Shown here: positions 32,235 through 52,393 of the stretch, piece after piece
How positions within the stretch are numbered: position 1 is the first letter of the stretch
Layout of the letters: every line of letters starts with the position of its first letter
Source: an uncultured Anaerolineae bacterium
GTDB taxonomy: Bacteria; Chloroflexota; Anaerolineae; VGOG01
Length of the DNA: 58,231 bases
Direction: 5' to 3'
NCBI GenBank assembly: GCA_964461615.1
Contig: CAYWWC010000001.1
Span: forward strand, 1-58,231
The notes under the pieces: model-generated
Database searches by the model: none
What the model saw: only the letters and a program-made list of their open reading frames with translations
Told to the model about the DNA's origin: nothing
Program-made: the position numbers and the translations under genes

Positions 32235-33326
32235 ATGTTGGGTGAAATAGAAATGCGAATAGCCACAGCCTACCAACAATCACTTTTCCCAGACCTGACT
32301 GCCGAGTTCCCTTCCACCCGCTATCAAGGCAGCAAAGCGAAGCTCGTTGATTGGATCTGGGAGCAAATCGCCGATTTAGATTTCACGACCTGCCTGGACG
32401 CCTTTGGCGGCACGGGTGCGGTGGCCTACCGCTTGAAGCAGGCGGGTAAGCGGGTTACGTATAACGACTTGCTCCGTTTCAACTATTACATTGGTCTGGC
32501 GCTGATTGAGAACAACCAGGTACGCCTCAGCCCTGAGGAAGTGGACTGGCTTCTCATGAGGCATCCAGAGATCGCGTATCCGCGTTTCGTCCAGGACAGT
32601 TTCCCTGACATCTATTTCACTGATGAGGAGAATGCCTGGATTGACCAGACGATCACCAACATTCGCCAACTCACCGATCCATACAAGTCTGCTTTGGCGT
32701 TCTTCGCCCTGTGTCAAGCCTGCATCATCAAGCGGCCCTATAATCTGTTTCATCGAAAAAACCTCTATATTCGCCTCGCAGAAGTGGAGCGCTCGTTTGG
32801 AAACAAGACCACCTGGGATAGGCCCTTCGAGGAGTGGTTTCACATTTTCGCCATAGAGGCCAATCGAGCCGTCTTTGACAATGGCCAGGTGAATCGTGCC
32901 CTTAATTGCGGGGCTGTTGATGTGCCGGGTGAGTATGATCTGGTTTATATAGACACACCTTACATCTCCAAAAAGGGCACGCCTGTTGACTACTTTGCGT
33001 TCTATCACTTCTTAGAGGGTTTGACAATGTACGATGAGTGGGGCAAACATATAGACCTCAAATCAAAGCATCGCCGTTTGAAGCTGCAACCAAGTGAGTG
33101 GACAGATAAGAGACGAATTCGCGCGGCTTTTGACCAGTTGTTTCGCAGATATCAGGAGAGTATTCTGGTCGTCTCTTATCGCAGCGATGGCATACCTTCT
33201 GAGTCAAAGCTGGTGTCTTTGCTCAAGCGATACAAGCGCCACGTGCGCGCTGAGCATTTTGGCCCATACAAATACGTCCTGTCCACCAACACCAAGTCTA
33301 AAGAAATTCTTCTGATCGGCACATAA
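32235..33326 (+). CDS. N6-adenine DNA methyltransferase (Dam/D12 class), partner of the adjacent EcoRV-family endonuclease
   Basis: STRYQGSKAKLVDWI, CLDAFGGTGAV (AdoMet motif) and LVYIDTPY (DPPY-type catalytic motif) are present. Confidence 0.85.
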   Translation: MLGEIEMRIATAYQQSLFPDLTAEFPSTRYQGSKAKLVDWIWEQIADLDFTTCLDAFGGTGAVAYRLKQAGKRVTYNDLLRFNYYIGLALIENNQVRLSPEEVDWLLMRHPEIAYPRFVQDSFPDIYFTDEENAWIDQTITNIRQLTDPYKSALAFFALCQACIIKRPYNLFHRKNLYIRLAEVERSFGNKTTWDRPFEEWFHIFAIEANRAVFDNGQVNRALNCGAVDVPGEYDLVYIDTPYISKKGTPVDYFAFYHFLEGLTMYDEWGKHIDLKSKHRRLKLQPSEWTDKRRIRAAFDQLFRRYQESILVVSYRSDGIPSESKLVSLLKRYKRHVRAEHFGPYKYVLSTNTKSKEILLIGT

Positions 33327-33349
33327 CTCTACCGAGGAGTTGAGCAGAG

Positions 33350-34138
33350 ATGATAGTAGATGATTTCAGAGAGAGCCTGTTGAGCCACCTGGACGAGTTC
33401 GGACGCACCCTTGCCACGGATGCCGGGGATTGGGTCGTCAAAGGGTTCATAGATGTCTACCGGAATATCTACACCATCTCGGTAGATACGAAGGTTGTAT
33501 CCAAGATCATCGAGTTGATGCTCTTTCCGGTCATCTCCCAGTTTGCAGCCGAACACGATTACAAAATGGTGCTCAGCGAATACCAGAATCACTATCCAGA
33601 CATCAGTTTCATGGCACCAGATGGGACGAAGATCGCCTTCGACCTCAAGAGTACATATCGCAGGAGTGCAAATACAGTGAGTGGTTTCACGCTTGGTGCA
33701 TTCACAGGCTATTTCCGCCGGCGGCAATCAACCAAGAATATCACCTTCCCGTACGAACAGTACGCCGCGCACTTTGTCCTGGGCATCATCTACAGCCGCA
33801 GCGACGAGGCTGTGGATGAGCGCCGGGTCTATACACTGGAGGACCTCCGGGACATTGTGTCGGTGGTCAAGGACTTCACTCTTCTGCTTCAGGAGAAGTG
33901 GCGAATTGCCAATGACCGGCCTGGGAGTGGAAACACGAAAAACATCGGTTCGGCGAGAAATATCGAGGCACTCGTTGAGGGTAAGGGGCCATTTGCCCGA
34001 TACGGAGAAGAAGTGTTCGACGACTACTGGATGAATTACTTGACAAATGATATGGCACTAGCCATTGATTCGGCTATCCCTTATCGAAACCTTGAGGATT
34101 ATTGGGAGTGGCGTGATCGTGTCGGGCGGCGAAGATAG
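33350..34138 (+). CDS. Type IIP restriction endonuclease, EcoRV family (probable GATATC specificity)
   Basis: 262 aa with SD GAGGAG. It aligns along its length with my recollection of R.EcoRV: VDTKVVSKIIELMLFPVISQFAAEHDY vs SDTKVLSTIFELFSRPIINKIAEKHGY; QNHYPDISF vs QNHYPDFTL; KIAFDLKSTY vs KIAIDIKTTY (PD..D-x-K catalytic site); GSGNTKNIGS vs GSGNTTNIGS. Confidence 0.85.
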   Translation: MIVDDFRESLLSHLDEFGRTLATDAGDWVVKGFIDVYRNIYTISVDTKVVSKIIELMLFPVISQFAAEHDYKMVLSEYQNHYPDISFMAPDGTKIAFDLKSTYRRSANTVSGFTLGAFTGYFRRRQSTKNITFPYEQYAAHFVLGIIYSRSDEAVDERRVYTLEDLRDIVSVVKDFTLLLQEKWRIANDRPGSGNTKNIGSARNIEALVEGKGPFARYGEEVFDDYWMNYLTNDMALAIDSAIPYRNLEDYWEWRDRVGRRR

Positions 34139-36077: not shown

Positions 36078-36698
36078 TTGCAACGTTCAACCATAAAACA
36101 CTTGATATCTATTGCTCTTGTTCTCTGCCTGAGCGCACTGCTGGCAAGTGTCGTCTATGCAGGTATTACCAGCAACGAGCACATGAGCGACACCCACCAC
36201 GGGCCGTCAGTGACCCAATTCCCCTCGGGGATATCTGCCGTCTACGTGGTCTTCGATTACAGCGATATGCATAACGAGGAGATCACTATAAAGGTTTGGA
36301 GCCCGATCGGGGAGCTTCTCTTCGAGCATATTCAGGTTTACTCAGACTCGGGCACGAAGTCCATCGAGGCCCCAGGGCCGGAAGGCGGAGCTTTCCCCGA
36401 TGGCCTGTATGCCACCAACTTTTACAGAGGCATGCTTTCCTACAAAACTCTCATCTGGGCCGTGGGCGAAGTGACACTCCCTACCCCCACGGCGACGGGT
36501 ACAGCTACGCCCACCGCGACTCCGACAACTACGCCGACTAGCACACCCACACCCACGCCCACACCAACTGCCACCGCTACTCCGACCGACACACCCATTC
36601 CGACACCAACTGCCACCGCCACAACAACTCCAACCGATACAATAACTCCAATTCCCAGTTACGAAGTTTGCCTGCCGATCATCGTGAAGAACTATTGA
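36078..36698 (+). CDS. Secreted small beta-domain protein with a ~60-aa Thr/Pro stalk and a C-terminal CLPIIVKNY motif
   Basis: TTG start gives signal peptide IKHLISIALVLCLSALLASVVYAG. The stop lies 5 nt before the radical SAM start codon. Confidence 0.7.
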   Translation: MQRSTIKHLISIALVLCLSALLASVVYAGITSNEHMSDTHHGPSVTQFPSGISAVYVVFDYSDMHNEEITIKVWSPIGELLFEHIQVYSDSGTKSIEAPGPEGGAFPDGLYATNFYRGMLSYKTLIWAVGEVTLPTPTATGTATPTATPTTTPTSTPTPTPTPTATATPTDTPIPTPTATATTTPTDTITPIPSYEVCLPIIVKNY

Positions 36699-36703
36699 GA
36701 ATC

Positions 36704-38092
36704 ATGAACGATAGACTGCAACAATTCGCCAGCAGTTTCATAGAAAGCACCCGCGACTACATCTTCGTCCGTCCCGAGGACAATCTGCTCATCCTGCGGC
36801 CCAACCGGGTGCACAACCTGAACGCCACCGCCACGGTGATGCTCAAGGCCCTCTACGAGCGTCAGCCGCTGGATGTCGAGGCCATCGTAGCCGAGCTCGC
36901 GGAGCGCTACGGTACACCTCCGGAGCGGATCGAGGAGGACATGGAGAAGCTACTCCAGAGCCTCTCGTTGGTGCTCCAGGATAGGTCGGGCTGCGCTCCG
37001 GCGGTGAAAACCACTCCCTTCGGCAGCCACGAGAGGAAATACCCCGTCCTGTCCGAGATTGCCGTGACCTACCGCTGCCAGAACCGCTGTTTCTTCTGCT
37101 ACGCCAGCTCCCCCGACCGGGGCCGCCAGGTACCGGAGATGACCACCGACGAGGTTAAGCTGGTGCTGGATAAGATCATGACTCAGGCCAGAGTGCCCAC
37201 CGTCTCCTTCACAGGCGGCGAACCTACTCTCCGTAAAGACCTGCCGGAGCTGATAGCCCACGCGAAGAGTTTGGGAATGAGGGCCAATCTTATCAGCAAC
37301 GGCATCAAGTGTGGCGACGCGGATTACGTGGCCACATTGGTCGAGGCGGGGCTGGACTCGGCCCAGATCAGCCTGGAGGCGGGGGAGGCTGCCATCCACG
37401 ATGAGGTGGTGGCCCACCCAGGGGCCTTCAAGCGCACGATGCAGGGAGTGCGCAACCTGCGGGCGGCCGACATTCACACCCACACCAACACCACCATCAA
37501 CCAAAAGAACCGGCAGGCCCTGCCAGACCTCATTGATCTTCTGGCCGAGATGGGCATGGCGTACCTCTCCATGAACATGGTCATTCGCACCGGCGGAGCG
37601 GTGGGTGTGCCCGACATCAATTATCAGGCTATCGGCGATCTGGTGCTCTCCTTCAAGGCCAGGGCCGAGGAGCGGGGGATGCGCTTCGTGTGGTACTCGC
37701 CCGTGCCCTACTGCCTCTTCAATCCTGCCCAGCACGGCCTGAGCTCCCCGTCCTGTTCAGCGGCCGAGGGGCTGTTGTCCATCGCCCCCGACGGGGCGGT
37801 GCTGCCCTGCTCCAGCTTCGAGGAGGGCATCGGCAACCTGCTCACCGAGGACTTCGCCACCCTCTGGAATCGGCGGTCGGCTCGCTACTGGCGGGACAAG
37901 GAGTTCCTGCCCCCAGGTTGTCAGGAGTGCGAGCTGGCCCACATCTGCTGCGGAGCCTGCCCCCTCTACTGGGATGAGCAGGGCACCTTCGCTGAGATAG
38001 CTCCCCACATGACCAAGACCTCGGCCTGGGACCGACTGACCTGGAGGTTGAAAAGGCGTTACCTGGGGAAGGTGAAGGGGGTGGGGATATAA
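36704..38092 (+). CDS. Radical SAM / SPASM-domain peptide-modifying enzyme with a fused N-terminal PqqD-like RiPP recognition element
   Basis: CQNRCFFC (CxxxCxxC) with GGEPTL. The SPASM region reads CSAAEGLLSIAPDGAVLPC ... CQECELAHICCGAC. The N-terminal ~95 aa (FVRPEDNLLILRPNRVHNLNATATVMLKAL...VEAIVAELAERYGTPPERIEEDMEKLLQSL) have the PqqD pattern. An alternative TTG start at 36668 would overlap the upstream gene. Confidence 0.85.
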   Translation: MNDRLQQFASSFIESTRDYIFVRPEDNLLILRPNRVHNLNATATVMLKALYERQPLDVEAIVAELAERYGTPPERIEEDMEKLLQSLSLVLQDRSGCAPAVKTTPFGSHERKYPVLSEIAVTYRCQNRCFFCYASSPDRGRQVPEMTTDEVKLVLDKIMTQARVPTVSFTGGEPTLRKDLPELIAHAKSLGMRANLISNGIKCGDADYVATLVEAGLDSAQISLEAGEAAIHDEVVAHPGAFKRTMQGVRNLRAADIHTHTNTTINQKNRQALPDLIDLLAEMGMAYLSMNMVIRTGGAVGVPDINYQAIGDLVLSFKARAEERGMRFVWYSPVPYCLFNPAQHGLSSPSCSAAEGLLSIAPDGAVLPCSSFEEGIGNLLTEDFATLWNRRSARYWRDKEFLPPGCQECELAHICCGACPLYWDEQGTFAEIAPHMTKTSAWDRLTWRLKRRYLGKVKGVGI

Positions 38093-39825: not shown

Positions 39826-40053
39826 AGCGGCTGATCGCTGGAACTACCTGATGTATCGCTCAGGAGGCTTCTGCCACTCAGACCCAACCGAAACTGGATC
39901 CCATATTTTAAGATTCAGGCCGTATCTAAAACAGCGTTTCTACGTTATAATAAGTAGGAAACCCTAGGCCATTGATCGACTTGCAGTAGCAAGGTATGAA
40001 TCACGATCCTTATTGCCTTGCTTTTCACCCCCGTCGGCCCGAGGAGGGCAGTG

Positions 40054-43000
40054 ATGCCGGCTTTGAAAGTATGCCTTTTTGGCTCTCCCAATATTACTTA
40101 TGATGAGGCTCCGCTCCTTATTACCTCCCAGAAAGCCCAGGCCCTATTCTACTACCTCATCTCCAATCGCCAGGCTCATTCCCGCGAGAAGTTGGCCACG
40201 CTGTTCTGGGGAGAGACCAGCGAACGCCAGGCCAAAGGTAGCCTGCGCAACACCCTCTATGAGTTGCGGCGCGACCTGACGCCAGGCAACAAGCCCGCCC
40301 AGCGACACATTTTGGCTGAAAGCAATACCCTCTGCCTTAACCCTGAGACTGATTACTGGCTGGACACCGAGGAATTCGAATCGCTGCTAGATAAAAAAGG
40401 CGAGGGTGAACGGGTCAGGATGGACAACTGGAGCAAGGCGGCGGAGCTGTATCGGGGCGATTTCCTTGAGGGTTTCATTGTCAAAGACAGCTTCGACTTT
40501 GAAGACTGGTCCTTTTTTGAGCGGGAGAGGTTGCAGAGAAGATATCTGGAGGCTCTCACTGAACTGAGCGATTATTGCGGCGGGCAGGGCGAGTACGAGA
40601 GAGCCATTACCTACGCCACTCAGATACTCAGTCGCGATAACCTTCAGGAAAACATACACCGCCAGTTGATGCGCCTCTACTACGCGGCTGGCAATCGCAG
40701 CGCGGCTCTGCGCCAGTACGAAATATGCAAGGAGGTCACAGAGCGGGAATTAGGCGCTGCTCTATTGGCCGAGACCACCACCCTCCATGAGCAGATACTC
40801 CGTCAGGAATTGGTGGAACCCCAGGCCAGGGAAATAGAAGCGTCGAGTATTGAAATCCAGTGGCAACCCCGTCCATCGCCGCTTCTCCCCTGGCCGAAGC
40901 CGGAGTATTTGAGCTCCAACCTCGTTGGTAGAGACAAGGAATACGCCCAGTTGACCCGCTATCTGGAGACCGCCAGCCAGGGAAGGAGCCAACTGGTCAT
41001 CATTGATGGCGAGGTTGGCATTGGCAAGACGCGGTTGGTACAGGAGTTGCTCGATCAGATAGAACCCGATTTTCACCTGTTGATAGGCCGGTGCTACGAG
41101 TCCGAAATGACGCTGCCATATCAGCCCTTGGTCGAGGCTCTGCGAGGCTATCTGCCAACACTGGATCTAAGCAAGCTTCAGGTATCCCGCCTTTGGCTCA
41201 GAGAAGTGAGCAAGCTGGTCCCCGAGTTGAGCGAGGCCCTGCCAGATCTCCCCAACAGTATTCCCCTAAACACCGACACGGAACGCAGCCGCTTGTTCGA
41301 GGGAGTTGTCCAGTTTTTTGTTGCTCTCTCTCGCCATCGCCCCCTGATCATCTTTATTGATGACCTCCATTGGGCCGATCAAGCGACGCTGGCCCTTCTC
41401 CAGTACCTGGCTCGCCACGTCACCAGGGAGAGGGTTCTGCTCATAGGCGCTTATCGCACTGAAGATCTGAGCGAGCCGCTGACGAATACCATGCGCAGCC
41501 TCAAGCAGGATGGCCTTCTTGCCAGGATCACCCTGCGCCGCCTCACTCTTGAGGATGTGACTACTCTGATCAGAGAGATGGCGGGCATGGAGAGCGGAGG
41601 CGAGAAATTCAGCCACAGACTGTATCAAGACACGGAGGGCAACCCCTTCTTCATCTCCGAGGTCATCCGCTCCCTCTTCGAGGAGGGCATCTTGTACCGT
41701 GACAAGCATGGCTGGACCACGGACCTCAAGGATTTCGACACCAGTTATGCTCAAATTCCGATTCCTCCCAGTGTCCGCGAGGTCGTTCAAGCCCGCCTCA
41801 ATCGTTTAGAGGACGTGAGCTACCAGGTGTTGGAGACGGCCGCAGTGTTCCGCCAGCAGTTCTACTTTGTCACCGTCAAGAGGGCTTGTGACAAAGACGA
41901 GGATGAGGCCCTGGATGCTTTCGACAAGTTGCTGCGGGCCCAGTTGATCAAAGAAGTCGAGGTAGGTATAAAGGGCAGTAGCTACGACTTCAACCATGAC
42001 AAGGTCAGGGAAGTGGCTTACCAGCAGATGAGCGGTGCCAGGTGTCAGCAAGTGCATCGGCGAGTGGGCGAAGCTCTGGAGATAGAATACCGCGATCGTC
42101 TTGATGAAGTGGTCAGCCGATTGGCCCATCACTTCACAGCGGGAGGGGACAGGGAAAGAGCTCTGAGATACTCCATCAGGGCTGGTGACAAGGCCAGAGA
42201 ACTCTATGCTAACGAGGAAGCCATCGCTTATTATCAGAGGACGCTGGAACTCGCGGAGAGTGCGGAGGAGTTGGCAACCATATACGAGGGATTGGGCGAC
42301 GTTTTTGCCCTGGTGGGAAAACACCACAACGCGATAGAGAGCTACGAATCTGTGCTGGACAGCGCGGCTGCAGGGCCGGACAAAAGGCGGGTAGCCGAGA
42401 TCCACCGCAAAATAGGCAGAGTACATGAGAGGAACGGGGGGCGCGATCTGGCCCTGGAGTGTTTTAGAACCGGCAGGCGGATCCTTGAATCCGACGGTCC
42501 CTCGCTAGAGATGGTCAGGCTGGATAGCGGCATGGCGTTCTTGAGCATTCGCCAAGGGCAATATGAGGAGGCCATTAGACTCTGCCAACAGAGCTTGGAT
42601 ATGGTAGAGAAGCTACCTGAGAACGCGGACAGCCGTAGGGAGCGGGCGAGGATATATAATAACCTGGGGTCTATTTATCTTAACTGGAGCGATTATCCCC
42701 GCGCCACCGAGCACTTCGAGAAGAGCCTGGCCATAAGAATCGAAAACGGGGACACCCACGGCACTGCCGTTCTTTACAATAACCTTGGAGTAGTCTGTGA
42801 GCACCAAGGCCACTATGATAAAGCTCTCGAATACCACCGCCAAAGTTGCGAGCTGAAGAAAGAAATCGGGGACATTTATGGACTGGCCATATCCCACACC
42901 AATCTGGGGCTGATTCTCTCCCGAAGGCAAGATTATCCTCAGGCCCTTGATCATCTGGAAGAAGCGGTGAGTATTTGTGGAGATATCGAGTGCGAATGGC

Positions 43001-43401
43001 TCTTGCCAGAAACCTATAGGATCATAGCTGAGGTTCGCCTGGATATCGGCGAAGTAACGGAAGCTCTGGAATATGGCTACGCTTCCCTTGAAAAGGCCCG
43101 CCAGACCGGCGACAAGGCCTTCGAAGGAGTGGCTCACCGGGTGTTGGGAAAGATAAAGGCCCTCGGACGCCAGCAGTGGGAAGAAGGAGAAAGGCATTTC
43201 TCAGAGAGCATAGACATGTTAAAAGCCCTGGGAAACGAACATGAACTCGGCAAGAGCTGCTATGAATTCGGACTGGTGTTGAGAGACAAAGGAGAGGTAG
43301 ACCGGGCCCGGGAACTCTTCTCCCAAGCTATTGAAATCTTCGAGAGAACAGGGGCCACCGAGAGACTCGAAAGAGCCCAAGCAGCGCGCCATCAGCTTTG
43401 A
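40054..43401 (+). CDS. SARP/AfsR-type regulator: OmpR-like wHTH + BTAD + P-loop NTPase (STAND-like) + TPR array
   Basis: ATG at 40054 lies 5 nt after GAGGAGGG. Motifs include LFWGETSERQAKGSLRNTLYELRRDL, YRGDFLEGF, Walker A GEVGIGKT and Walker B LIIFIDDLHWAD. The C-terminal ~400 aa contain TPR-like A..Y...L repeats. Confidence 0.85.
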   Translation: MPALKVCLFGSPNITYDEAPLLITSQKAQALFYYLISNRQAHSREKLATLFWGETSERQAKGSLRNTLYELRRDLTPGNKPAQRHILAESNTLCLNPETDYWLDTEEFESLLDKKGEGERVRMDNWSKAAELYRGDFLEGFIVKDSFDFEDWSFFERERLQRRYLEALTELSDYCGGQGEYERAITYATQILSRDNLQENIHRQLMRLYYAAGNRSAALRQYEICKEVTERELGAALLAETTTLHEQILRQELVEPQAREIEASSIEIQWQPRPSPLLPWPKPEYLSSNLVGRDKEYAQLTRYLETASQGRSQLVIIDGEVGIGKTRLVQELLDQIEPDFHLLIGRCYESEMTLPYQPLVEALRGYLPTLDLSKLQVSRLWLREVSKLVPELSEALPDLPNSIPLNTDTERSRLFEGVVQFFVALSRHRPLIIFIDDLHWADQATLALLQYLARHVTRERVLLIGAYRTEDLSEPLTNTMRSLKQDGLLARITLRRLTLEDVTTLIREMAGMESGGEKFSHRLYQDTEGNPFFISEVIRSLFEEGILYRDKHGWTTDLKDFDTSYAQIPIPPSVREVVQARLNRLEDVSYQVLETAAVFRQQFYFVTVKRACDKDEDEALDAFDKLLRAQLIKEVEVGIKGSSYDFNHDKVREVAYQQMSGARCQQVHRRVGEALEIEYRDRLDEVVSRLAHHFTAGGDRERALRYSIRAGDKARELYANEEAIAYYQRTLELAESAEELATIYEGLGDVFALVGKHHNAIESYESVLDSAAAGPDKRRVAEIHRKIGRVHERNGGRDLALECFRTGRRILESDGPSLEMVRLDSGMAFLSIRQGQYEEAIRLCQQSLDMVEKLPENADSRRERARIYNNLGSIYLNWSDYPRATEHFEKSLAIRIENGDTHGTAVLYNNLGVVCEHQGHYDKALEYHRQSCELKKEIGDIYGLAISHTNLGLILSRRQDYPQALDHLEEAVSICGDIECEWLLPETYRIIAEVRLDIGEVTEALEYGYASLEKARQTGDKAFEGVAHRVLGKIKALGRQQWEEGERHFSESIDMLKALGNEHELGKSCYEFGLVLRDKGEVDRARELFSQAIEIFERTGATERLERAQAARHQL

Positions 43402-43502
43402 CGGTCTCCCCATTGAACCTACCCCCTTAGCATTGATCCTCCCCATAATCCTCAAAGCCCTAACCCACCCCTAACTTGGACAAGCCAGAACCAAGTTCCC
43501 CG

Positions 43503-43558
43503 TTGGGCGAAGGTCTCTGACCGAGCCCCGATTACAACTGCGGTCAGGAGACCTTGCC
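43503..43558. repeat. Intergenic copy of the GAAGGTCTC(C)YGACCG hairpin family
   Basis: AAGGTCTCTGACCG (43510-43523) pairs with CGGTCAGGAGACCTT (43541-43555) with one bulge. The 5' flank TTGGGCGAAGG is shared with the copies at 25252 and 6930. Confidence 0.75.
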
Positions 43559-43660
43559 GAACAGTTAGAGTACAGGGCCGCCTCTGCTGGAAGTCTTGGA
43601 TCTACTGAGACTGAACGAACCGAGGCGATTCAGCACGAATTCGCCCAATCCTTGAAACCT

Positions 43661-43709
43661 GTCCTGAGCCCTGTTGCTTGTACTGAGCTTGTCGAAGTGA
43701 AGGATTCGC
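43661..43709. repeat. Intergenic copy of the GTCCTGAGC..ACTGAGCTYGYCGAAG repeat family
   Basis: The sequence is GTCCTGAGCCCTGTTGCTTGTACTGAGCTTGTCGAAGTGAAGGATTCGC. Related copies lie inside CDS at 9055-9117 and 27206-27230. Confidence 0.7.
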
Positions 43710-43787
43710 TGTCAGATGACGGGGCCTTAAGGAACTTTGACGTTTCCCTGACGCTCTTCTAACGGATAATTGACGCCTATTTGGTAT

Positions 43788-43817
43788 ACTGCTGTTGAAA
43801 GTTAACAGCAGTTTTTT
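43788..43817 (+). terminator. Intrinsic terminator-like hairpin plus T-tract
   Basis: ACTGCTGTT-gaaagtt-AACAGCAGT is followed by TTTTT. It overlaps a TGgTATACT extended -10-like sequence (43782-43790), so the terminator and promoter readings are mutually exclusive. Confidence 0.5.
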
Positions 43818-43842
43818 ATTAACTGTGGAAAGGAGAGAAAGT

Positions 43843-44061
43843 ATGTCGCTTCAGCAACGAAAGTATGTGTCCTTCTTTATCCGCATTTGGGAGGAGCCAC
43901 GGGAGATGGAGGACGAGAATCCTGAATGGCGCGGCAGTGTCGAAAACGTCCAAACAGGGCAGAAGAATTACTTCAAGGGTATGGAGAATCTGGTTGGTTT
44001 TATCCGCAAACAGTGTAACGGTTTTGGCGTATCCTGGAACAAACGGAAATACATTGCCTGA
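43843..44061 (+). CDS. Small (72-aa) cytoplasmic protein of unknown function
   Basis: ATG lies 6 nt after AAGGAGAG. The sequence FFIRIWEEPRE..PEWRGSVENVQTGQKNYFKGMENLVGFIRKQ has no TM segment. Confidence 0.6.
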   Translation: MSLQQRKYVSFFIRIWEEPREMEDENPEWRGSVENVQTGQKNYFKGMENLVGFIRKQCNGFGVSWNKRKYIA

Positions 44062-44129
44062 GATCATGAGAAATGCCAGGCAAGTTGGGGATACTTACAA
44101 ACCAGTAAAAACGAAGGAGGTAATGGAAA

Positions 44130-44171
44130 ATGGGCGATCAAGTAGGCATAATCGAGGGCGACCTTTCTTAA
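44130..44171 (+). CDS. 13-aa micro-ORF MGDQVGIIEGDLS (a single copy of the downstream repeat unit)
   Basis: ATG lies 9 nt after GAAGGAGG. The 5' region AAGGAGGTAATGGAAAATG duplicates that of the next gene (AAGGAGGTAATGAAGAATG). Its stop TAA abuts the next SD. Confidence 0.55.
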   Translation: MGDQVGIIEGDLS

Positions 44172-44186
44172 AGGAGGTAATGAAGA

Positions 44187-44510
44187 ATGAAAAAGACACT
44201 TTGGTACATCTTTAGTTTGGCGCTGATTCTCGGTCTCTTGTTAAGCGTTAATCTGGCCGAGGGCCTTGCTTTGTTCGAGAACGTCGGGATCATTGAGGGC
44301 GATTTCTCCGCTGGGATCATCGAGGGCGACTTCTCCGCGGGAATCATCGAGGGCGACTTCTCTGCAGGGATCATCGAGGGCGACTTCTCCGCAGGGATCA
44401 TCGAGGGTGACTTCTCCGCGGGAATCATCGAGGGCGACTTCTCTGCCGGGATCATCGAGGGCGACTTCTCTGCAGGAATCATCGAGGGCGACCTGGCAAC
44501 TTCTGCATAG
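44187..44510 (+). CDS. Exported acidic repeat protein/propeptide: signal peptide + 7 x GIIEGDFSA + GIIEGDLATSA
   Basis: ATG lies 9 nt after AAGGAGG. The Sec-type signal is MKKTLWYIFSLALILGLLLSVNLA. It is followed by eight tandem 27-bp units that differ only at synonymous third positions. Confidence 0.75.
   Translation: MKKTLWYIFSLALILGLLLSVNLAEGLALFENVGIIEGDFSAGIIEGDFSAGIIEGDFSAGIIEGDFSAGIIEGDFSAGIIEGDFSAGIIEGDFSAGIIEGDLATSA
44286..44495 (+). repeat. Tandem 27-bp coding repeat, 7.8 copies
   Basis: Units start at 44286, 44313, 44340, 44367, 44394, 44421, 44448 and 44475. Variants are GGG/GGA, ATT/ATC, GGC/GGT, GAT/GAC, TCC/TCT and GCT/GCG/GCA/GCC. Confidence 0.95.
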
Positions 44511-44717
44511 AATTGCAGTAACTTGGTCACTTGATACGCCAGGGCACTCCAGCGGTCTGAATGGTCATACTCTCTAATGACCGAAAACAAGGCCGCTTAG
44601 GGCTACATCCTCAGGGGTTCCTGGCCTATTGCGTGAGTAATTACGAATTGCGGCTAGAATCAAGCCGCTGATCATCAAAAAAACATATCAAGCAAAAAAA
44701 CAAAAGGAGGCTCGAAA

Positions 44718-47462
44718 ATGAATAAGAAGCATTGGACGACGTTAGGTCTGGCACTGGGAGTTTTGGTGCTGGGAGTTTTGGTGGGCCTGATGACGGTCGG
44801 CACTGTAGCAGCCGACCCGACGCCCGGAGTGAAGATCCAGATCCCTCGCCTAGACGTGGGAGATATGGGAAATGGTGACTGGGAGACCTGGATTCACGTG
44901 CAGAACGTGAGCCTGCCGGACCCAGTTACCGGGGTAGAGCCGAACACCGGGGCGGTCTTCTTGGGATGGGGCGCATACTCTGGACTTTGTCCCACCAACG
45001 ATCCAGGGGTTATTGCCCACTACTGCCAATTGATCCAAGGAAACGCCCTCTGGACTTTGAGAACCCAGATCGACGAGGCAGTCAAGTCGGCCATAGTCTA
45101 CACGGTCAGAGAGGATTTGCTCCAGGAGGCTTGCTTCGCCTCAGAATTGACCGAGGGTGATAAGGTTGCGTGGGCATGCTGGGTGGAGGAATGGGAGTTT
45201 GGCACGTGTGAGGGCGACGGAGGGGGCTGGAATGATGGCCCCGGGGATGCTTTCGGAGAAGACGTAGCCGTCACGGTGACCCGTTATGGGCCTAATGACT
45301 ACGGCACTTTTGTCTCCAGCACCTACACTGGAATCTCCAGGGAGATGGATGGCGAGGGTGCTCCGTGGGAGTACTATGCCCCCTACGTTATGAAAGGTTA
45401 CAACGGCCTGGACACAGAGTTGACTATCCAGAACTCAGGCGATTTGTGCACCTCGGTATGGATAGACTACATACCGGAAGGAACCTGCGGCATTCAATAT
45501 AAGCAGCACATTGAGCAGTTAGCGCCGGGTGAGTCCGTGCGGGTGCCGAGTGACATCGCGCGTGTGTTCCCTGAGGAGTATGATGGCCGGGGTGATCCCC
45601 TTGAGTGTTTCTGGCTGGGATCGGCCCACATCGCGGCCGAGCAGCCCCTGGGCATCATCGTGGACCAAACGAGCTCTGATGCACCTTGCTTCGGCCAGGA
45701 TCAGGGTACTTTACTGACCCATCGCGCTCGGCCCAAAATGGAGAAGAGAGGCGAGGAATTCATTGAGGACTATAGAGTCTACGCCGACCTCATCTTCCGC
45801 GAGTGGAGCGGTTGGAGCTCCAGCATTCAGGTGCAGAACCTGAGTCGAGAAGGACTGAATACTTTCGTGACCGTGGACTTCTTGGACAACAGTGGCGACG
45901 AGGTACTCTTCCTCGCCGACTGGGTATGCCCTGGCGATTCCACCACCTTCTACCTGCCGATAGTCAACAACCTGGGCTTCGACTACGTAGGGGCAGCCGA
46001 GATCGAATCGCACGATCAAGTGAACTACCCAGGTGGAGTGACAGAAGGACAGCCCATCTTCGCCGTGGTAGACCTGAAGAAGCCGGTTGATCCGCCCCTT
46101 AACAATTACGCGCAGGGAGGGAGCTACAATGCTCATCCTTACTCCCAAAAGGAGTGGGTAAGCGAGATCGCCCTTCCCTTCGTTTCCAAAGCCACAGGGG
46201 GTTTCCCTCCCCCCTCAGGCGAGGCGTGGACCTCCCTGATCGCCATCCGCAACAACTCCAACTGCAACAAGATCAAGCCTGAGATCCACTTCAAAGACGA
46301 AACCGGGACGATTGTGTGCACGATCCAGAGTTTCTGGCTCAGGCCTAAGCACGTCAAGATGTTTGACCTTACCGAGATCGGCTGCTTGTGGCCAGGCTAT
46401 ATCGGCGCGGCCAGGGTGTATGTCGAACAGTTCGAGCAACTCTGCGATGTGGACAACGATGGCCACGTGGACAACGAGCCCCTCATGCCTTCCGTGATAG
46501 TAGTGCAGGAGGGTATTCACGACGGCGGCGGCGATATCACCAACATCTACGAGGGCATCCCCTATCGCAAAAACATAACTACCTGCGACGGCAACCTCTT
46601 CGGCGATGTTACCGTTCGGCAGGCAGACCACGGGTATGACCGCGAAGAGATCCGATACGTTGCGGTGACCGCCACGGACGAGGAGGGACTCCTCATCGAC
46701 ACCACTGACTCCACCGGTGGCTACCAGATCACGGGTGTGACGGTGGAGGGATCCAGTGGCGCTGTCACGATGGCGTTCACCAAAACAGACTTCTTCGACG
46801 GCGCAGCGACACCTACTGTCAACTGCGGCGGTGAGACCCAGCAGAACTTCGAGCTCATCTGCTCCAACCCGCTGACCGTTACGACGAGGTACTCCACAGT
46901 GCTTGGCTCTGGGGTCCTCCCCAATGTCTTGGTGGATGGACTAGCGACATACCGAAACGGGAATGGGGACAACGAGGTCCTGGCGTACACTGTCACGACC
47001 GACAACGACGGTATCTCGACGGTTCCTGTGGCTGGTGGTCAGACGATCACCGGTACAGCAACACTGTTTGGTTATGACGACGCCACAGACATCTATACGA
47101 CGACGGCAACCACTGTCTGCAGCTTATCCCCGTCCCTAACCTTCACGATGTGCCAGTGGAACAGCATCGTGGGCACGGTCACCATCGGCGGCTCGGCGGC
47201 TGAGGGCTACAGGGTTGATGCTGTCCGGACGGATACGTGGGCCGTGGTTGATACCGACACTACCACCTCCCTGGGCGTGTTCATGCTGCACAACTTCAGC
47301 AAGGCGGTCTATGAGGCGGGGACGGGCTATCCGTATGACATCAGGCTCTACAACCCCAGCGATTCGCTCATCTCCACGAAGACCGGCATCACTGTCACCA
47401 CGTGCGGTGCTACCGGGGTGCTTACTTACACTACCAATGTTTGGGATGGGCCAACTTGGTAG
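44718..47462 (+). CDS. Large secreted/anchored protein of unknown function with four internal beta-sandwich-like modules and CarboxypepD_reg-like C-terminal domains
   Basis: SD AAAGGAGG and an A-rich leader precede the start. An N-terminal TM/signal segment is present. A signature recurs four times: WETWIHVQNVS, ELTIQNSGDLCTSVWIDY, WSSSIQVQNLSREGLNTFVTVDF and WTSLIAIRNNSNCNKIKPEIHF. Confidence 0.8.
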   Translation: MNKKHWTTLGLALGVLVLGVLVGLMTVGTVAADPTPGVKIQIPRLDVGDMGNGDWETWIHVQNVSLPDPVTGVEPNTGAVFLGWGAYSGLCPTNDPGVIAHYCQLIQGNALWTLRTQIDEAVKSAIVYTVREDLLQEACFASELTEGDKVAWACWVEEWEFGTCEGDGGGWNDGPGDAFGEDVAVTVTRYGPNDYGTFVSSTYTGISREMDGEGAPWEYYAPYVMKGYNGLDTELTIQNSGDLCTSVWIDYIPEGTCGIQYKQHIEQLAPGESVRVPSDIARVFPEEYDGRGDPLECFWLGSAHIAAEQPLGIIVDQTSSDAPCFGQDQGTLLTHRARPKMEKRGEEFIEDYRVYADLIFREWSGWSSSIQVQNLSREGLNTFVTVDFLDNSGDEVLFLADWVCPGDSTTFYLPIVNNLGFDYVGAAEIESHDQVNYPGGVTEGQPIFAVVDLKKPVDPPLNNYAQGGSYNAHPYSQKEWVSEIALPFVSKATGGFPPPSGEAWTSLIAIRNNSNCNKIKPEIHFKDETGTIVCTIQSFWLRPKHVKMFDLTEIGCLWPGYIGAARVYVEQFEQLCDVDNDGHVDNEPLMPSVIVVQEGIHDGGGDITNIYEGIPYRKNITTCDGNLFGDVTVRQADHGYDREEIRYVAVTATDEEGLLIDTTDSTGGYQITGVTVEGSSGAVTMAFTKTDFFDGAATPTVNCGGETQQNFELICSNPLTVTTRYSTVLGSGVLPNVLVDGLATYRNGNGDNEVLAYTVTTDNDGISTVPVAGGQTITGTATLFGYDDATDIYTTTATTVCSLSPSLTFTMCQWNSIVGTVTIGGSAAEGYRVDAVRTDTWAVVDTDTTTSLGVFMLHNFSKAVYEAGTGYPYDIRLYNPSDSLISTKTGITVTTCGATGVLTYTTNVWDGPTW

Positions 47463-49717: not shown

Positions 49718-52393
49718 TCAATCTGCTTCCTTCCCAATCCGCTGTAGTCTTTCGCCAACAACCAGCGGATAGATTACCACCAGTGCTGCCAAGTACGCCA
49801 CACTCCCCCCTACCAGCACCCGCGAGAAGCCGAAGGAGATGGCCAGCATGGCCGATAGGATGGAGGCCAGCACCGAGGTGCAGCCGTTGATGCCCCAGGC
49901 CCAGGGGACGAGGTCAGGGGCCAGGCGGCCTATGATTTCAATGCCCTTGGGGAAGGGCACGCCCATCAGGAAACCCAGTGGGGCCAGACTCAAGATGGAG
50001 ACCAGGAGGCGCAGGCCCAGGCTCTGGCCCAACAGCAATTGGAAGACAACAGGGAGGATGAGGGGATAGAGGATGATGGCGACGATCAAGGCCAGCAGGG
50101 TTTTGGGCAAAGATAACCTGGCCGAGATCATGCTGCCCAGCCCTGAGAACAGGAGGATGGCGAAGAGTACGGCGGCGAAGGCGTAGACTGGGTGGCCCAA
50201 GAAAAGGATGAATTGCTGCATCAGCGGTATCTCGACGAAGAGATAGCCCAGACCCAGCGCGGCGAAGTAAGCGAAAATGCGCCACCTGTTCGGCCGCCGG
50301 ATCGCCAGATCCGGCGGGAGCAGGGGGGTAGTGGGCCTCCGGCGGAACAGCAAAGGCAGCAGGATGAGGATGGCCGAGGCCAGAACGGCCAAGATCAGGA
50401 GAGCCACCAGCACGAAGTAGCCGCTTCCGCCGAAGGGCTGCCAGATCTTGCCGAAGGTCTGCAGGATCTCTGGCGTCTGGCTCCACTTGAAGAAGTGGAA
50501 GAAGAAGGGGCGATCATCACTGGTGGGAGAGACATCGTAGGCGTAGTCAGCGTAGAAACTAGCTCGGTCGCCGAACAGGAGGGACTGGAAGGCTCGGTAG
50601 TAAAGCGGCTCCTGGTAGGCGTTGTAACGATTGGCCTCGTTCTCCTGGATGCCTGGATAGTACACCAGGTCGAATTGCTGTTCTCGACAGAAGCTTTTCA
50701 CCGCCTTGATCTCCTCAGCCGTGAACTCCCCGTTTTTGATCAGCAGCAGTAGGGTTGACCAACTGCGGATAGCGACCAGACGCAGCTCCGGTTGGTGGAG
50801 GCCCGCTTTCTCCAAAGCCGTCACCGCCAGTGCCCCGACCCGCAGGTTCTCGCTGGGCGGCGTTTGCAGCCAGCGGCTCACCACCAGCAAGCCGCCCTCG
50901 CTCAGGTGGGCAAGGTAGTCAACAAAAGCCTCCACGGTGTAAAGATAGCTCTCCGATAGGCTGTAAGCTCCGGAGGTCACGGGTCTGTAGGTGTCGGCCA
51001 ACGACACCTGGACGACGTCGAAGAATGTCTCCCCCACTCGCCTCACATAGCTGCGCCCGTTCTCCACCACTACTGTCACTCGCGGGTCCTGATACGGGCT
51101 CAAATCTCCCCCCCCTTGATCCCCCCCCAACGGGGGGGGAAAGGCGTCTTTGGCGACTTCGATCACTAGCGGATTGCTCTCTACGGCTACGATCGACGAG
51201 GCCCCTCCGTGTAAGGCCGCCAGGACGTCGAGGCCGCCTCTAGGCTCAATGATCAGGGCTTTCGCCTGGGGACGGAGGCGGTAGGGCAAGGAGACGGGCA
51301 GGTAGTCAATGAAATCCAGCTTTTCGGGTTTGGTTATGGGGGAGAGATTGTCACCGTCGGTGAAGAGGCCCTTTTGAAGCGGCAGAGAGCCAGGATAGGC
51401 CAGGCTCAGGCCCGGCGCCGACTTCACTCCCTGGCTCTTAATCACATCAACCCGGGAGAAAGCGTTCCAGCGGCTGAAGACGACCTCCGCTCCCGGATAG
51501 AGCAACGCCTGGCTGAGACCTTTGTAGGGGGAGAGGCGAACCTCCAGGAAAGATGGGGGGCGGAGGGTAAGGAAGAGCAGGACTAAAGCAATGATGCTGG
51601 GTATTAGAGATTGGAGATTGGAGAACCTACCCCCACCCAGCCTCCCCCTGGCAGGGGGAGGAGTCTGAGTTCCCCTCCCTGCGAGGGAGGGGCTAGGGGA
51701 GGGTGAGCCTTCCGTTGAGAACCCACTCCCACCCAGCCTACCCCTGCCAGGGGGAGGAGTCTGACTTCCCCGCCCTGCGAGGGAGGGGCTAGGGGAGGGT
51801 GAGCCTTCTGAAGCAAAGGCTATCGCCGCCAGCGCCCCCAACAACGCGCTGAGCATCACTGTCCCTGCCCCACCCAGGAGAGGCAAAGCTACTACTGCAA
51901 CCACACAGCCAACGGCTGAACCAGCCAAGTTGAAGGAATAGATACTACCCGCTCGTTCAGGCCGCGCCGCCAGCAGGACGCCTACGGCCAGGCCGCTGAA
52001 GAAAAAAGGCAGCGCCAGGAACAGATAGTAGACAGCCAGGAAGAGGATCTGCTCTCGATCCCAGGCGATACGATAGGAGTCGAAGGGGATGTAGTTGATG
52101 TTCAGATAGCTGGCTACAATGCCAAGAGCCTGAAGTGTTGAGAGGTTAGCGAGAAGCCTGGTCGGATTTTTCTTGACCAGGTTGGGGAAAAGGGAGAGGA
52201 AGGAGCCACTGACTCCGAAGCCCAGGAGGGCGATGCTGACCGCCATGAAAGCGAAGTGATACCATTGGGCCAGGGAAAAAATCCGCGTGAGGGTGATCTC
52301 CAGGCACAAGCCGGCCATGGAGAGCAAAAAAACGCCCAGGTTGGTCAGGTGGTCGTTGGTCGGGTGGTCATTCGCGAGGGTTTCCGCCGTCAT
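49718..52393 (-). CDS. Polytopic membrane protein with a central spermidine-synthase-like (class I MTase fold) domain (fused MFS/spermidine synthase type)
   Basis: 891 aa. The N-terminal TM bundle begins FLLSMAGLCLEITLTRIFSLAQWYHF. The central soluble block is ALIIEPRGGLDVLAALHGGASSIVAVESNP, followed by C-terminal TM helices. Repeat-derived inserts are present. Confidence 0.8.
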   Translation of the reverse strand: MTAETLANDHPTNDHLTNLGVFLLSMAGLCLEITLTRIFSLAQWYHFAFMAVSIALLGFGVSGSFLSLFPNLVKKNPTRLLANLSTLQALGIVASYLNINYIPFDSYRIAWDREQILFLAVYYLFLALPFFFSGLAVGVLLAARPERAGSIYSFNLAGSAVGCVVAVVALPLLGGAGTVMLSALLGALAAIAFASEGSPSPSPSLAGRGSQTPPPGRGRLGGSGFSTEGSPSPSPSLAGRGTQTPPPARGRLGGGRFSNLQSLIPSIIALVLLFLTLRPPSFLEVRLSPYKGLSQALLYPGAEVVFSRWNAFSRVDVIKSQGVKSAPGLSLAYPGSLPLQKGLFTDGDNLSPITKPEKLDFIDYLPVSLPYRLRPQAKALIIEPRGGLDVLAALHGGASSIVAVESNPLVIEVAKDAFPPPLGGDQGGGDLSPYQDPRVTVVVENGRSYVRRVGETFFDVVQVSLADTYRPVTSGAYSLSESYLYTVEAFVDYLAHLSEGGLLVVSRWLQTPPSENLRVGALAVTALEKAGLHQPELRLVAIRSWSTLLLLIKNGEFTAEEIKAVKSFCREQQFDLVYYPGIQENEANRYNAYQEPLYYRAFQSLLFGDRASFYADYAYDVSPTSDDRPFFFHFFKWSQTPEILQTFGKIWQPFGGSGYFVLVALLILAVLASAILILLPLLFRRRPTTPLLPPDLAIRRPNRWRIFAYFAALGLGYLFVEIPLMQQFILFLGHPVYAFAAVLFAILLFSGLGSMISARLSLPKTLLALIVAIILYPLILPVVFQLLLGQSLGLRLLVSILSLAPLGFLMGVPFPKGIEIIGRLAPDLVPWAWGINGCTSVLASILSAMLAISFGFSRVLVGGSVAYLAALVVIYPLVVGERLQRIGKEAD
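51621..51809. repeat. Two tandem 96-bp GC-palindrome-rich units, in frame inside the membrane protein gene
   Basis: Units lie at 51621-51716 and 51717-51809. Each contains CCCCTGSCAGGGGG and CCCTCCCTGCGAGGGAGGG palindromes. On the coding strand they read EGSPSPSPSLAGRG(S/T)QTPPP(G/A)RGRLGG twice. Confidence 0.85.

Follow-up and report, generated by a model that had tools for sequence, protein, structure and literature searches.

A tandem hexapeptide repeat protein behind a predicted SARP-type promoter in an uncultured Anaerolineae bacterium

We analysed a stretch of 58,231 nucleotides (hereafter the window, meaning the whole of this stretch: positions 1 to 58,231 of contig CAYWWC010000001.1, assembly GCA_964461615.1) from an uncultured bacterium of Anaerolineae in the phylum Chloroflexota. 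The + strand of the window carries at 44187-44510 a gene for a small protein composed of an N-terminal hydrophobic helix and eight tandem copies of the hexapeptide GIIEGD, and just upstream of this gene lies a micro-open reading frame (micro-ORF) with a single copy of the same hexapeptide. It is well supported that the gene encodes a small and probably exported protein, with a Sec-type signal or anchor helix ahead of a tandemly repeated and selected hexapeptide, GII(E/K)GD, joined by free linkers, and that this gene is third among the cistrons of an operon; the operon is preceded by a predicted promoter of the SARP type and by the gene of an AfsR-like regulator.

The repeat gene, its micro-ORF and their relatives

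The elements of the repeat gene and its 5' flank are as follows.

44114-44121, + strand: Shine-Dalgarno (SD) sequence AAGGAGGT of the micro-ORF, in the first copy of a duplicated SD-spacer-ATG
44130-44171, + strand: micro-ORF MGDQVGIIEGDLS and stop (ATG at 44130, TAA at 44169-44171), with one GIIEGD unit and no signal peptide; the stop and the main gene's SD share a nucleotide run
44171-44178, + strand: SD sequence AAGGAGGT of the main gene, in the second copy of the duplicated SD-spacer-ATG
44187-44510, + strand: ORF of the repeat protein, translated as MKKTLWYIFSLALILGLLLSVNLAEGLALFENV, seven units of GIIEGDFSA, GIIEGDLATSA, and stop
44187-44285, + strand: export signal or membrane anchor, with MKK, a hydrophobic core of 17-20 aa, NLAEGLA, and then LFENV
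44286-44510, + strand: array of eight GIIEGD cores, seven with the linker FSA and the eighth followed by LATSA and the stop; period of 27 nt, super-period of 81 nt

In the window, Tandem Repeats Finder (TRF) located the 27-nt array at 44286-44492 (7.7 copies, score 323) together with its 81-nt super-period (score 365), which is by far the top-scoring tandem repeat of the whole 58 kb, and a motif scan of the window found no further GII(K/E)GD motif beyond the repeat ORF and the micro-ORF. The seven full units vary in exactly six columns (3, 9, 15, 18, 24, and 27), each of which is the third position of a codon. Because just 19 of the 81 possible single substitutions in the unit (23%; 33% of the transitions) are silent, such a silent-only pattern is improbable by chance; the P value for six to eight independent changes all being silent is about 1e-4 to 1e-5. 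As the super-period of 81 nt shows, some of the differences were copied via duplication of a block, and the events were therefore counted conservatively. An earlier note on this DNA, made from the sequence alone, had described eight units with exclusively synonymous differences, and TRF and the translation confirm this description.

Homologues were collected by a word-indexed search of 5.8 billion proteins, which gave 29 homologous clusters, and by an exhaustive profile search of 1.84 billion representatives with a hidden Markov model, which gave six additional clusters; this profile search detected no distant relatives outside the same clade, and its leftover matches were unrelated low-complexity repeats. 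All of the homologous clusters, at 36-102 aa, have the common N-terminus MKRTLWxIFSLALILGLLLSxNLAE(S/G)LASFKN, followed by GII(K/E)GD units. In the arrays compared in this study, the repeat proteins with 2-11 repeats have 63-142 aa. The array loci (related loci and lineages are denoted here by L numbers) come from at least 11 species-level metagenome-assembled genomes (MAGs), all of which belong to Anaerolineae/Chloroflexota. The earlier note had considered that homologues might turn out to be linkers of larger proteins, but all of those found are small and stand alone. Pfam and NCBIfam hold no family, even at E = 10, for the repeat protein or for three of its neighbours described below (p72, 'big', and m430), and a search of the literature yielded no papers on GIIKGD, GIIEGD, IIKGDFSA, or IIEGDFSA. 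A narrow and unannotated family restricted to one clade of Anaerolineae is well supported.

An ORF on the antisense strand (44168-44590) reads PSMIPAEKS invariantly in the window, and the earlier note had cautioned that this frame is equally invariant. This is true inside the window; in the orthologous arrays of L005, L007, and L010, however, the antisense frame is broken by stops, whereas the + frame is open at every locus. The assignment to the + strand is hence backed by comparison, beyond the SD and the signal peptide. Indeed, a strong SD and the same hydrophobic N-terminus stand ahead of each array, and the codons of the N-terminus show the switching among Leu codons that is typical for coding sequence. 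Judged from these comparisons of sequence, the + strand repeat gene is real and is under purifying selection at the peptide level, as had been proposed for the window alone.

The selected unit, nonetheless, is not the nonapeptide GIIEGDFSA of the earlier note. When 171 units in 33 arrays (the window and 32 others) were compared, only the hexapeptide GII(K/E)GD was conserved, and its Asp was nearly invariant with rare replacement by Asn. The linker after the hexapeptide has 0-6 residues in 43 variants (FSA, LSA, ASSA, FAPSA, FSAPSA, FSPENA, RA, LCPRSA, and others); the length of the unit is 6-12 residues and is often mixed inside one array (e.g., L014), and the copy number is 2-11, with two units only in L022. 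Because GII(K/E)GD alone is kept and the linkers are free in both sequence and length, the hexapeptide but not the nonapeptide is considered as the selected element. The triads F-S-A and D-F-S, which the earlier note had singled out, involve the variable linker; L020 has eleven copies of GIIKGD with no linker at all, and neither its units nor those of L010 (GIIKGDASSA/ALSA) contain an aromatic residue.

Selection on the hexapeptide is also evident in its codons; in 13 arrays, all of the 42 variable columns in matching cores are third positions, a count that is conditioned on the matching of the core, and degenerate units do exist (MSIEGD in L017 and GTLEGN in L007). Changes in the unit length keep the + frame in all 33 arrays. 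Furthermore, L027, of which a 3.1-kb flank is 100% identical to the window, has five units against eight in the window, an in-frame difference of 81 nt. A change in copy number between near-identical genomes is thus in frame, as would be anticipated from the earlier note, although the difference in L027 may represent either real variation or a collapse in assembly.

Position 4 of the unit is Lys in 129, Glu in 41, and Arg in one of the 171 units, and it is uniform within 31 of the 33 arrays. A net charge of -2 with no Lys or Arg, as noted earlier, therefore applies to the genome of the window only and fails in the relatives, where Lys prevails. Among the genomes, the Glu type is polyphyletic; the window and L001 cluster with the Lys-type L010 and L014, and L017 clusters with the Lys-type L005 and L020. 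The switch between Lys and Glu (K/E switch) has hence happened at least about three times.

The micro-ORF opens at the first copy of the duplicated AAGGAGGTAATGnAnAATG, which is found at 44114 and 44171; the segment between the two SD-spacer-ATG copies amounts to 57-60 nt. In all eight lineages carrying this segment (the window, L001, L013, L005, L007, L010, L022, and L006), the micro-ORF is intact and its stop is in or beside the SD of the main gene, so that the signal-less single unit described in the earlier note is real; in L006, it has 48 aa and three units. Codon-by-codon comparison of the six single-unit micro-ORFs revealed four synonymous changes (ATA/ATC, ATC/ATT, GAG/GAA, and GAC/GAT) and K/E in the core, with replacements in the flanking codons. 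The K/E state of the micro-ORF is that of the main array in every genome. Also, the array does not share the micro-ORF codons GGC ATA ATC, an observation that speaks against wholesale gene conversion between the two. Since the carriers represent only about two independent K/E switches, the agreement is suggestive but not significant, and it hints that the single signal-less unit may have its own function.

The repeat protein has one hydrophobic segment (residues 3-31), and this N-terminal region is strongly conserved in all homologues, with MKK/MKR, 17-20 hydrophobic residues, and then NLAE(G/S)LA. AlphaFold models residues 2-29 as a helix with a predicted local distance difference test score (pLDDT) of 83-89, and an uncleaved anchor is possible. 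From the positive N-terminus, an N-in orientation with the repeats facing outward is predicted. The repeats were modelled as alternating strands with an 18-residue period at pLDDT of 60-68 and a predicted template modelling score (pTM) of 0.38, and the model was not used for a fold search because its confidence was too low.

The operon and its predicted promoter

The repeat gene is embedded in a conserved order of p72, the micro-ORF (where present), the repeat gene, a structured RNA, and 'big', which was found at 15 loci from 11 or more species-level MAGs, and the convergent m430 comes after 'big'. In the window, these neighbours and the elements upstream of them are as follows.

40018-43401, + strand: AfsR-like 'large SARP' STAND regulator, with winged-helix/BTAD, AAA_16 ATPase, and TPR; its start codon is uncertain
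43738-43775, + strand: putative SARP-binding box, with TGACG, TGACG, TAACG, and TGACG exactly 11 nt apart
43785-43790, + strand: TATACT, a -10-like hexamer, 9 nt past the fourth repeat, or 8 nt past it when TTGACGC is taken as the repeat
43788-43818, + strand: inverted repeat ACTGCTGTT-N7-AACAGCAGT and then T6, a terminator-like match overlapping the -10 and the predicted start site
43843-44061, + strand: p72, the first cistron, a cytoplasmic protein of 72 aa (MSLQQRKYVSFFIRIWEEP...EWRGSVENVQTGQ...) without a Pfam or NCBIfam family
44518-44672, + strand: structured RNA between the repeat gene and 'big', with a stem of about 28 bp and a 3' hairpin
44718-47462, + strand: 'big', an exported or anchored all-beta protein of 914 aa with one N-terminal hydrophobic helix
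47563-48855, - strand: m430, a convergent, membrane-anchored protein of 430 aa with an invariant HEWxH motif

The regulator was matched by Pfam to BTAD (6e-21), AAA_16 (2e-32), and TPR_12 (1e-49), but its matches to AfsR/SARP in NCBIfam are weak and below the cut-off, and it is therefore not regarded as an orthologue of AfsR. It has no hydrophobic or transmembrane segment and is hence considered to be cytoplasmic. In most of the related loci, the gene of the regulator is directly upstream of the operon.

Between the regulator and the operon, the pattern of four repeats is unique in the window, with none expected in shuffled sequences. The segment of the box is nearly invariant in the 15 aligned loci, including L006 and L022, and TATACT is invariant in these 15 loci and in L024. 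In L024 (150-230), furthermore, a box with five repeats is placed ahead of p72 with the same spacing to TATACT, and L026 has four GTGATG repeats with a spacing of 11 nt between a BTAD gene and a p72-like gene. In published SARP promoters, direct repeats are 11 or 22 bp apart and the 3' repeat is 8 bp from the -10 (PMC10936776), and the geometry of the box and TATACT fits this rule. We infer that the box and TATACT form a SARP-type promoter of the operon, its role as a promoter being predicted, and that the upstream regulator would activate the operon via the box. The inverted repeat overlapping the -10 is conserved in the aligned loci, with G-U-compatible changes in L006, and is absent in L024; it could be a terminator for read-through from upstream, an attenuator, or an operator. 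Given that L006 keeps the pairing via G-U, an RNA hairpin (terminator or attenuator) is suggested over a DNA operator.

p72 is the best-conserved protein of the locus, with 83-99% identity across the loci. It contains the motif FFIRIWEEP...EWRGSVENVQTGQ and is always encoded by the first gene after the 11-nt direct-repeat boxes, and directly after the BTAD gene in L026. Distant homologues of p72 are likewise behind 11-nt direct repeats or a BTAD gene (L024:484-702 and L026:1020-1364); in Chloroflexota, p72 might commonly serve SARP regulators as a small partner.

The RNA between the repeat gene and 'big' has a minimum free energy of -63.3 kcal/mol against -44.1 +/- 3.7 kcal/mol in shuffles (z = -5.25; none of 200 shuffles was as stable), and in the consensus fold over eight loci, the long stem is kept with seven pairs showing double-sided changes. 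An Rfam scan of 43300-44800 gave no match to this RNA and only one spurious match to an internal ribosome entry site, and L006 has just a 65-nt spacer in its place. The structured RNA may be an element for RNase III-type processing or for stability, and could thereby set the ratio of the peptide to 'big' and uncouple the abundances of the two.

'big' is located directly 3' of the repeat gene at all loci and consists of conserved beta-sandwich domains in the N-terminal ~600 aa and variable CarboxypepD_reg/Big-like domains in the C-terminal part. Its AlphaFold model (pLDDT of 87) has beta-sandwich domains only, and a Foldseek search with this model returned adhesins, pilins, surface-layer (S-layer) proteins, and generic tandem Ig-like proteins with TM scores below 0.2, and no enzyme fold. 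Homologues of 'big' are widespread in Anaerolineae with varying C-terminal Big/CarboxypepD_reg/LTD domains, and paralogues occur without the peptide, e.g., after an ECF sigma/DUF5667 pair in L011. The signal/anchor helix of 'big' is unusually conserved between the loci. A perfect 15-nt tandem duplication (CTGGGAGTTTTGGTG twice, 44754-44783) is found inside the sequence for this helix (LGVLVLGVLV). The signal of the repeat protein and the 5' end of 'big' are similar at a level weakly above shuffles (p about 0.01-0.001), but this is uninformative since it is expected for any two signal peptides. Also, a secreted protein of 206 aa (p206) with a Thr/Pro-rich tail is encoded at 36078-36698 and resembles the C-terminus of the DUF5667 protein preceding the 'big' paralogue in L011 (L011:9400-9696), which hints at a wider link of p206/DUF5667-type (anti-sigma-associated) domains to this surface-protein family.

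m430 follows 'big' in all nine loci that reach far enough. It had no match in Pfam, NCBIfam, or PDB, where the sequence search gave only designed coiled coils, and from its invariant HEWxH it may be a novel zinc metalloprotease. Because downstream synteny is also partly conserved, the linkage of m430 is weak and its membership in the module is uncertain. As a candidate for a dedicated protease, m430 was accordingly set aside; its HEWxH is invariant, yet its linkage is inseparable from the general synteny.

Elsewhere in the window, an 891-aa ORF on the minus strand (49718-52393) contains a 96-nt tandem duplication at 51621-51808 (2.0 copies, 93% identity), and short tandem repeats coding for Thr/Pro (ACGCC/ACACC-type) occur at 20149-20247, 32032-32186, and 36542-36651 in large secreted proteins. 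The latter are typical low-complexity linkers and are unrelated to the GIIEGD array.

What the hexapeptides may do

The overall interpretation in the earlier note can thus be kept for the coding strand, the micro-ORF, and the stand-alone homologues, and is not supported for the nonapeptide unit, the link to a radical S-adenosylmethionine (rSAM) enzyme, and a calcium-binding or solenoid role; the operon and its SARP-type promoter had been overlooked. We favour instead a SARP-controlled operon in which the hexapeptides act as independent motifs and the TPR sensor of the regulator is their favoured target, and assign to this reading as a whole a probability of roughly 0.4. The regulator would bind the four 11-nt-spaced TGACG repeats, which end 8-9 nt before the -10, and this binding would activate the operon. 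Each hexapeptide would then serve as an independent short linear motif, for which valency but not a folded repeat matters; indeed, the invariant six-residue core, the free linkers, the free copy number, and the micro-ORF with its single unit all argue for independent motifs rather than a folded repeat. The micro-ORF would deliver one copy of the motif inside the cell, and the main gene would export 2-11 copies, which might be kept tethered or be cut into short peptides. By analogy with AfsR/AfsS, the motif would bind the TPR sensor of the regulator and thereby produce a positive feedback, which would be cell-autonomous via the peptide of the micro-ORF and would operate at the level of the community via the exported array after processing and re-uptake. 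In the TPR domain as the target of the motif, we have modest confidence based on that analogy.

Several observations speak against such a circuit. The main array is predicted to be extracellular and the regulator is cytoplasmic; feedback from the array would need processing and import, and the locus encodes neither a transporter nor a confirmed protease. The micro-ORF, which would supply the motif inside the cell, is cleanly gone, with a single SD-ATG left, in eight lineages (L014-L018, L020, L021, and L023), and these include close kin of the carriers (the regulators of L010 and L014 are 96% identical). From this distribution, the micro-ORF is probably ancestral and has been lost repeatedly, and is hence dispensable. 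In L024, the box and p72 are directly followed by a 606-aa 'big'-like gene and the repeat gene is absent, so that the circuit can run without the peptide; the repeat gene is accordingly considered as a lineage-specific insertion between p72 and 'big'. Also, L006 and L022 have no adjacent regulator even though the box is kept. The K/E switch is not tracked by any column in the alignments of the regulator, 'big', and m430; this is unexpected for a tight pair of peptide and receptor, and the test for a receptor in the style of pherotypes was accordingly negative. The sequence of the repeat protein does not resemble that of AfsS, which also lacks a signal peptide. The copy numbers, finally, were taken from metagenome assemblies, which may collapse such arrays.

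A more far-reaching version, which we think unlikely, is a peptide-signalling circuit in filamentous Chloroflexota, where an AfsR-like NLR/STAND factor would be switched on by GII(K/E)GD supplied from one mRNA both as an intracellular single copy and as an exported pro-peptide of up to eleven copies, which neighbours could process and import. If true, a large SARP would for the first time have a defined ligand of its TPR sensor; the circuit would also represent a secreted equivalent of AfsS, and a signal of quorum or position in a phylum other than Firmicutes and Actinobacteria. What large regulators of the SARP/STAND type, which are bacterial and NLR-like, respond to is not known, AfsR included, and the action of AfsS-type proteins has been clarified only recently. 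The locus is a natural system in which a regulator, its DNA box, and a simple six-residue candidate ligand are all readable from sequence; if the link to the regulator fails, the locus is reduced to a repeat protein that is surface-associated, restricted to its lineage, and of modest interest in general.

As a partner of the motif, the surface protein 'big' is almost as likely as the TPR domain. In this alternative, the array, exported or tethered in the membrane and with 2-11 identical motifs that form beta-strands, would be a multivalent extracellular partner that docks on the beta-sandwich domains of 'big' by strand addition, possibly in a covalent manner via its Asp as in pilin-type isopeptide tags, and tethers or cross-links the protein into a surface layer; the micro-ORF would be only a device for translational coupling. 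Consistent with this, the repeat gene is always directly upstream of 'big' in one operon, both of the proteins have a single N-terminal hydrophobic helix, and the all-beta sandwich chain of 'big' resembles adhesins, pilins, and S-layer proteins. The structured RNA in between could determine the ratio of the two products, and Gly-Ile-Ile and then Gly-Asp, with the nearly invariant Asp, are like a strand followed by a turn. In L011, L012, and L024, however, 'big' homologues function without the peptide, and no column of 'big' co-varies with the K/E switch. The retention of the micro-ORF core at the level of amino acids would be left unexplained, and neither a sortase nor a transglutaminase nor another enzyme for assembly is present. 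The idea of docking is drawn from analogy, and in its full form we regard this alternative as possible but somewhat doubtful.

In contrast to docking on 'big', the proposal of the earlier note that the array is a precursor of a ribosomally synthesized and post-translationally modified peptide (RiPP) involves an enzyme outside the operon.

36704-38092: PqqD-rSAM-SPASM enzyme with a fused PqqD-like domain

This rSAM enzyme, encoded 6.5 kb upstream, would modify each unit of a multi-core precursor by a cross-link or Ile-Ile epimerisation, with the N-terminus as a leader and with proteolytic release of the products. The enzyme has a PqqD-like recognition domain and no obvious precursor gene of its own nearby; no conserved small precursor ORF was found directly upstream of it. 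The gene is next to the operon in seven lineages (the window, L001/L013, L005/L019, L010, L016, L017, and L021), the N-terminal region of the repeat protein is unusually conserved, and identical repeated cores are typical for some RiPP precursors. Beside intact arrays, nonetheless, the rSAM gene is gone in five of 12 lineages (L014, L018, L020, L022, and L006), a count that refers to the neighbourhood only. It travels with a coiled-coil protein of 410 aa (p410) and a transmembrane/zinc-ribbon protein of 164 aa (p164) as a separable three-gene block; L020 keeps only p410-p164, and because in L014 and L018 RNase J has the regulator or a p206-like gene as its direct neighbour, the block is regarded as a unit of insertion or deletion. 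The regulator and p72 separate the rSAM gene from the repeat gene, which belongs to another transcription unit with its own predicted SARP promoter, and the N-terminus of the repeat protein looks like a Sec signal but not a cytoplasmic leader. Furthermore, the enzyme is below the cut-off of every curated NCBIfam family; the best match is generic heme b synthase with 134 bits against 500, the 'GDL motif peptide-associated' maturase scores 85 bits against 592, and the XyeB/Fxs/Grr families fail. The conserved core GII(K/E)GD has no Cys, Trp, Tyr, His, or Phe, the Phe being in the dispensable linker, and without a conserved aromatic residue or Cys, the idea of a cyclophane loses its basis. A modification such as epimerisation is conceivable, although no observation suggests it. 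A literature search on Anaerolineae, rSAM, RiPP, and repeat found nothing relevant. We consider a RiPP precursor improbable here, and the locus shows that even a striking neighbourhood of a repeat and an rSAM enzyme can be coincidental, as it was the comparative context that removed this reading.

Between RNase J and the rSAM block in the window, a type II restriction-modification pair is inserted at 32235-34138, namely a D12-class adenine methyltransferase and an EcoRV-family endonuclease (Pfam, 4e-100); relatives such as L014 and L018 lack this pair.

A folded repeat, either a beta-solenoid or left-handed beta-helix (in which a turn of 18 residues would take up two 9-mers or three 6-mers), a calcium-binding acidic matrix, or a subunit of an amyloid-like fibre, appears very improbable. 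The AlphaFold strands with an 18-residue period would agree with it, units of 9, 6, and 12 residues fit an arrangement in multiples of 6, and the Glu-type unit has a charge of -2. The low pLDDT and pTM of the repeats are, however, those of models that are common for perfect repeats, and 38 of 138 intervals are 8, 10, or 11 residues, which are mixed within single arrays (L014). As 75% of the units are of the Lys type with a net charge of 0, calcium binding, which the earlier note had suggested as a possible role, is argued against. The unit is unlike the RTX nonapeptide GGxGxDxUx, of which GIIEGDFSA matches only G1 and D6; the hexapeptide-repeat consensus [LIV]-[GAED]-x2-[STAV]-x fits only the Glu-type core and does so loosely, with no match to Pfam Hexapep; and in L022 there are just two units. 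That the locus is not a + strand protein gene at all, with the antisense PSMIPAEKS ORF (which shares wobble positions and, within the window, is invariant and without stops) or DNA/RNA elements in its place, has a negligible probability in view of the antisense stops in relatives, the lack of an SD and the TTG start of the antisense ORF, the + frame kept through length changes behind a conserved SD and export helix, and the likely DNA sites of the regulator elsewhere, at 43738-43775.

Comparison with known systems

Triceptides (three-residue cyclophanes) and epipeptides are repeat RiPPs modified by rSAM/SPASM enzymes. Repeated short motifs in a small precursor and a nearby rSAM/SPASM enzyme with a PqqD-like domain are common to them and the present locus, but here the unit has no conserved aromatic residue, the enzyme is inconsistently co-located, the N-terminus is Sec-like, and the repeat gene has its own predicted promoter. 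Yeast alpha-factor and the precursors of fungal dikaritins (UstA) are multi-copy pro-peptides that are cut into identical units at Kex2 sites. They begin with a signal peptide and continue with identical short units in tandem, separated by spacers and variable in number, and in this they recall our repeat protein; these systems are, however, eukaryotic and dependent on Kex2, whereas no conserved cleavage motif flanks the units described here and one array has no spacers.

PatS, PatX, and HetN are morphogen peptides of filamentous cyanobacteria. There, too, a filamentous bacterium encodes the same short motif both by a tiny ORF without a signal and as part of a larger protein whose N-terminus is hydrophobic, but the motif is a different one (RGSGR) and forms no tandem repeats, the genes are not linked to each other, and a SARP regulator plays no part. 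In quorum sensing of the RRNPP type (Phr, PapR, and NprX), pro-peptides are secreted, and pherotype switches co-vary with the receptor. A small gene with a Sec signal beside a cytoplasmic TPR-containing regulator, with a short linear peptide as the active part, is shared with our locus; its regulator is, however, of the SARP/STAND but not the RRNPP type, the conserved block contains no Opp genes, and the K/E switch occurs without co-variation of a receptor.

The closest likeness is to AfsR/AfsS of Streptomyces. In both cases, a large regulator with SARP, ATPase, and TPR parts is placed beside a promoter with 11-bp direct repeats ending about 8 bp from the -10, and a small protein is made of little but tandem repeats, the number of which varies between species (2-5 there and 2-11 here). 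AfsS proteins have 2-5 tandem amino-acid repeats with little common sequence, and their gene, adjacent to that of AfsR, is activated by AfsR; the binding of AfsS to AfsR in turn scales with how many of the repeats are intact (PMC10832544). Binding of the repeats to the regulator has thus been shown in Streptomyces and is only a candidate here, where co-variation gave no supporting column. AfsS is cytoplasmic and monocistronic with repeats of 12 aa, whereas the protein described here has an export helix, is encoded by a third cistron, and shares no sequence similarity, and only the product of the micro-ORF would stay cytoplasmic. The operon described here, which belongs to another phylum, Chloroflexota, has p72 and a large surface protein among its products as well. 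By this analogy, the locus would best be described as a new exported variant of the theme in which an AfsR-like regulator is accompanied by a small tandem-repeat protein.

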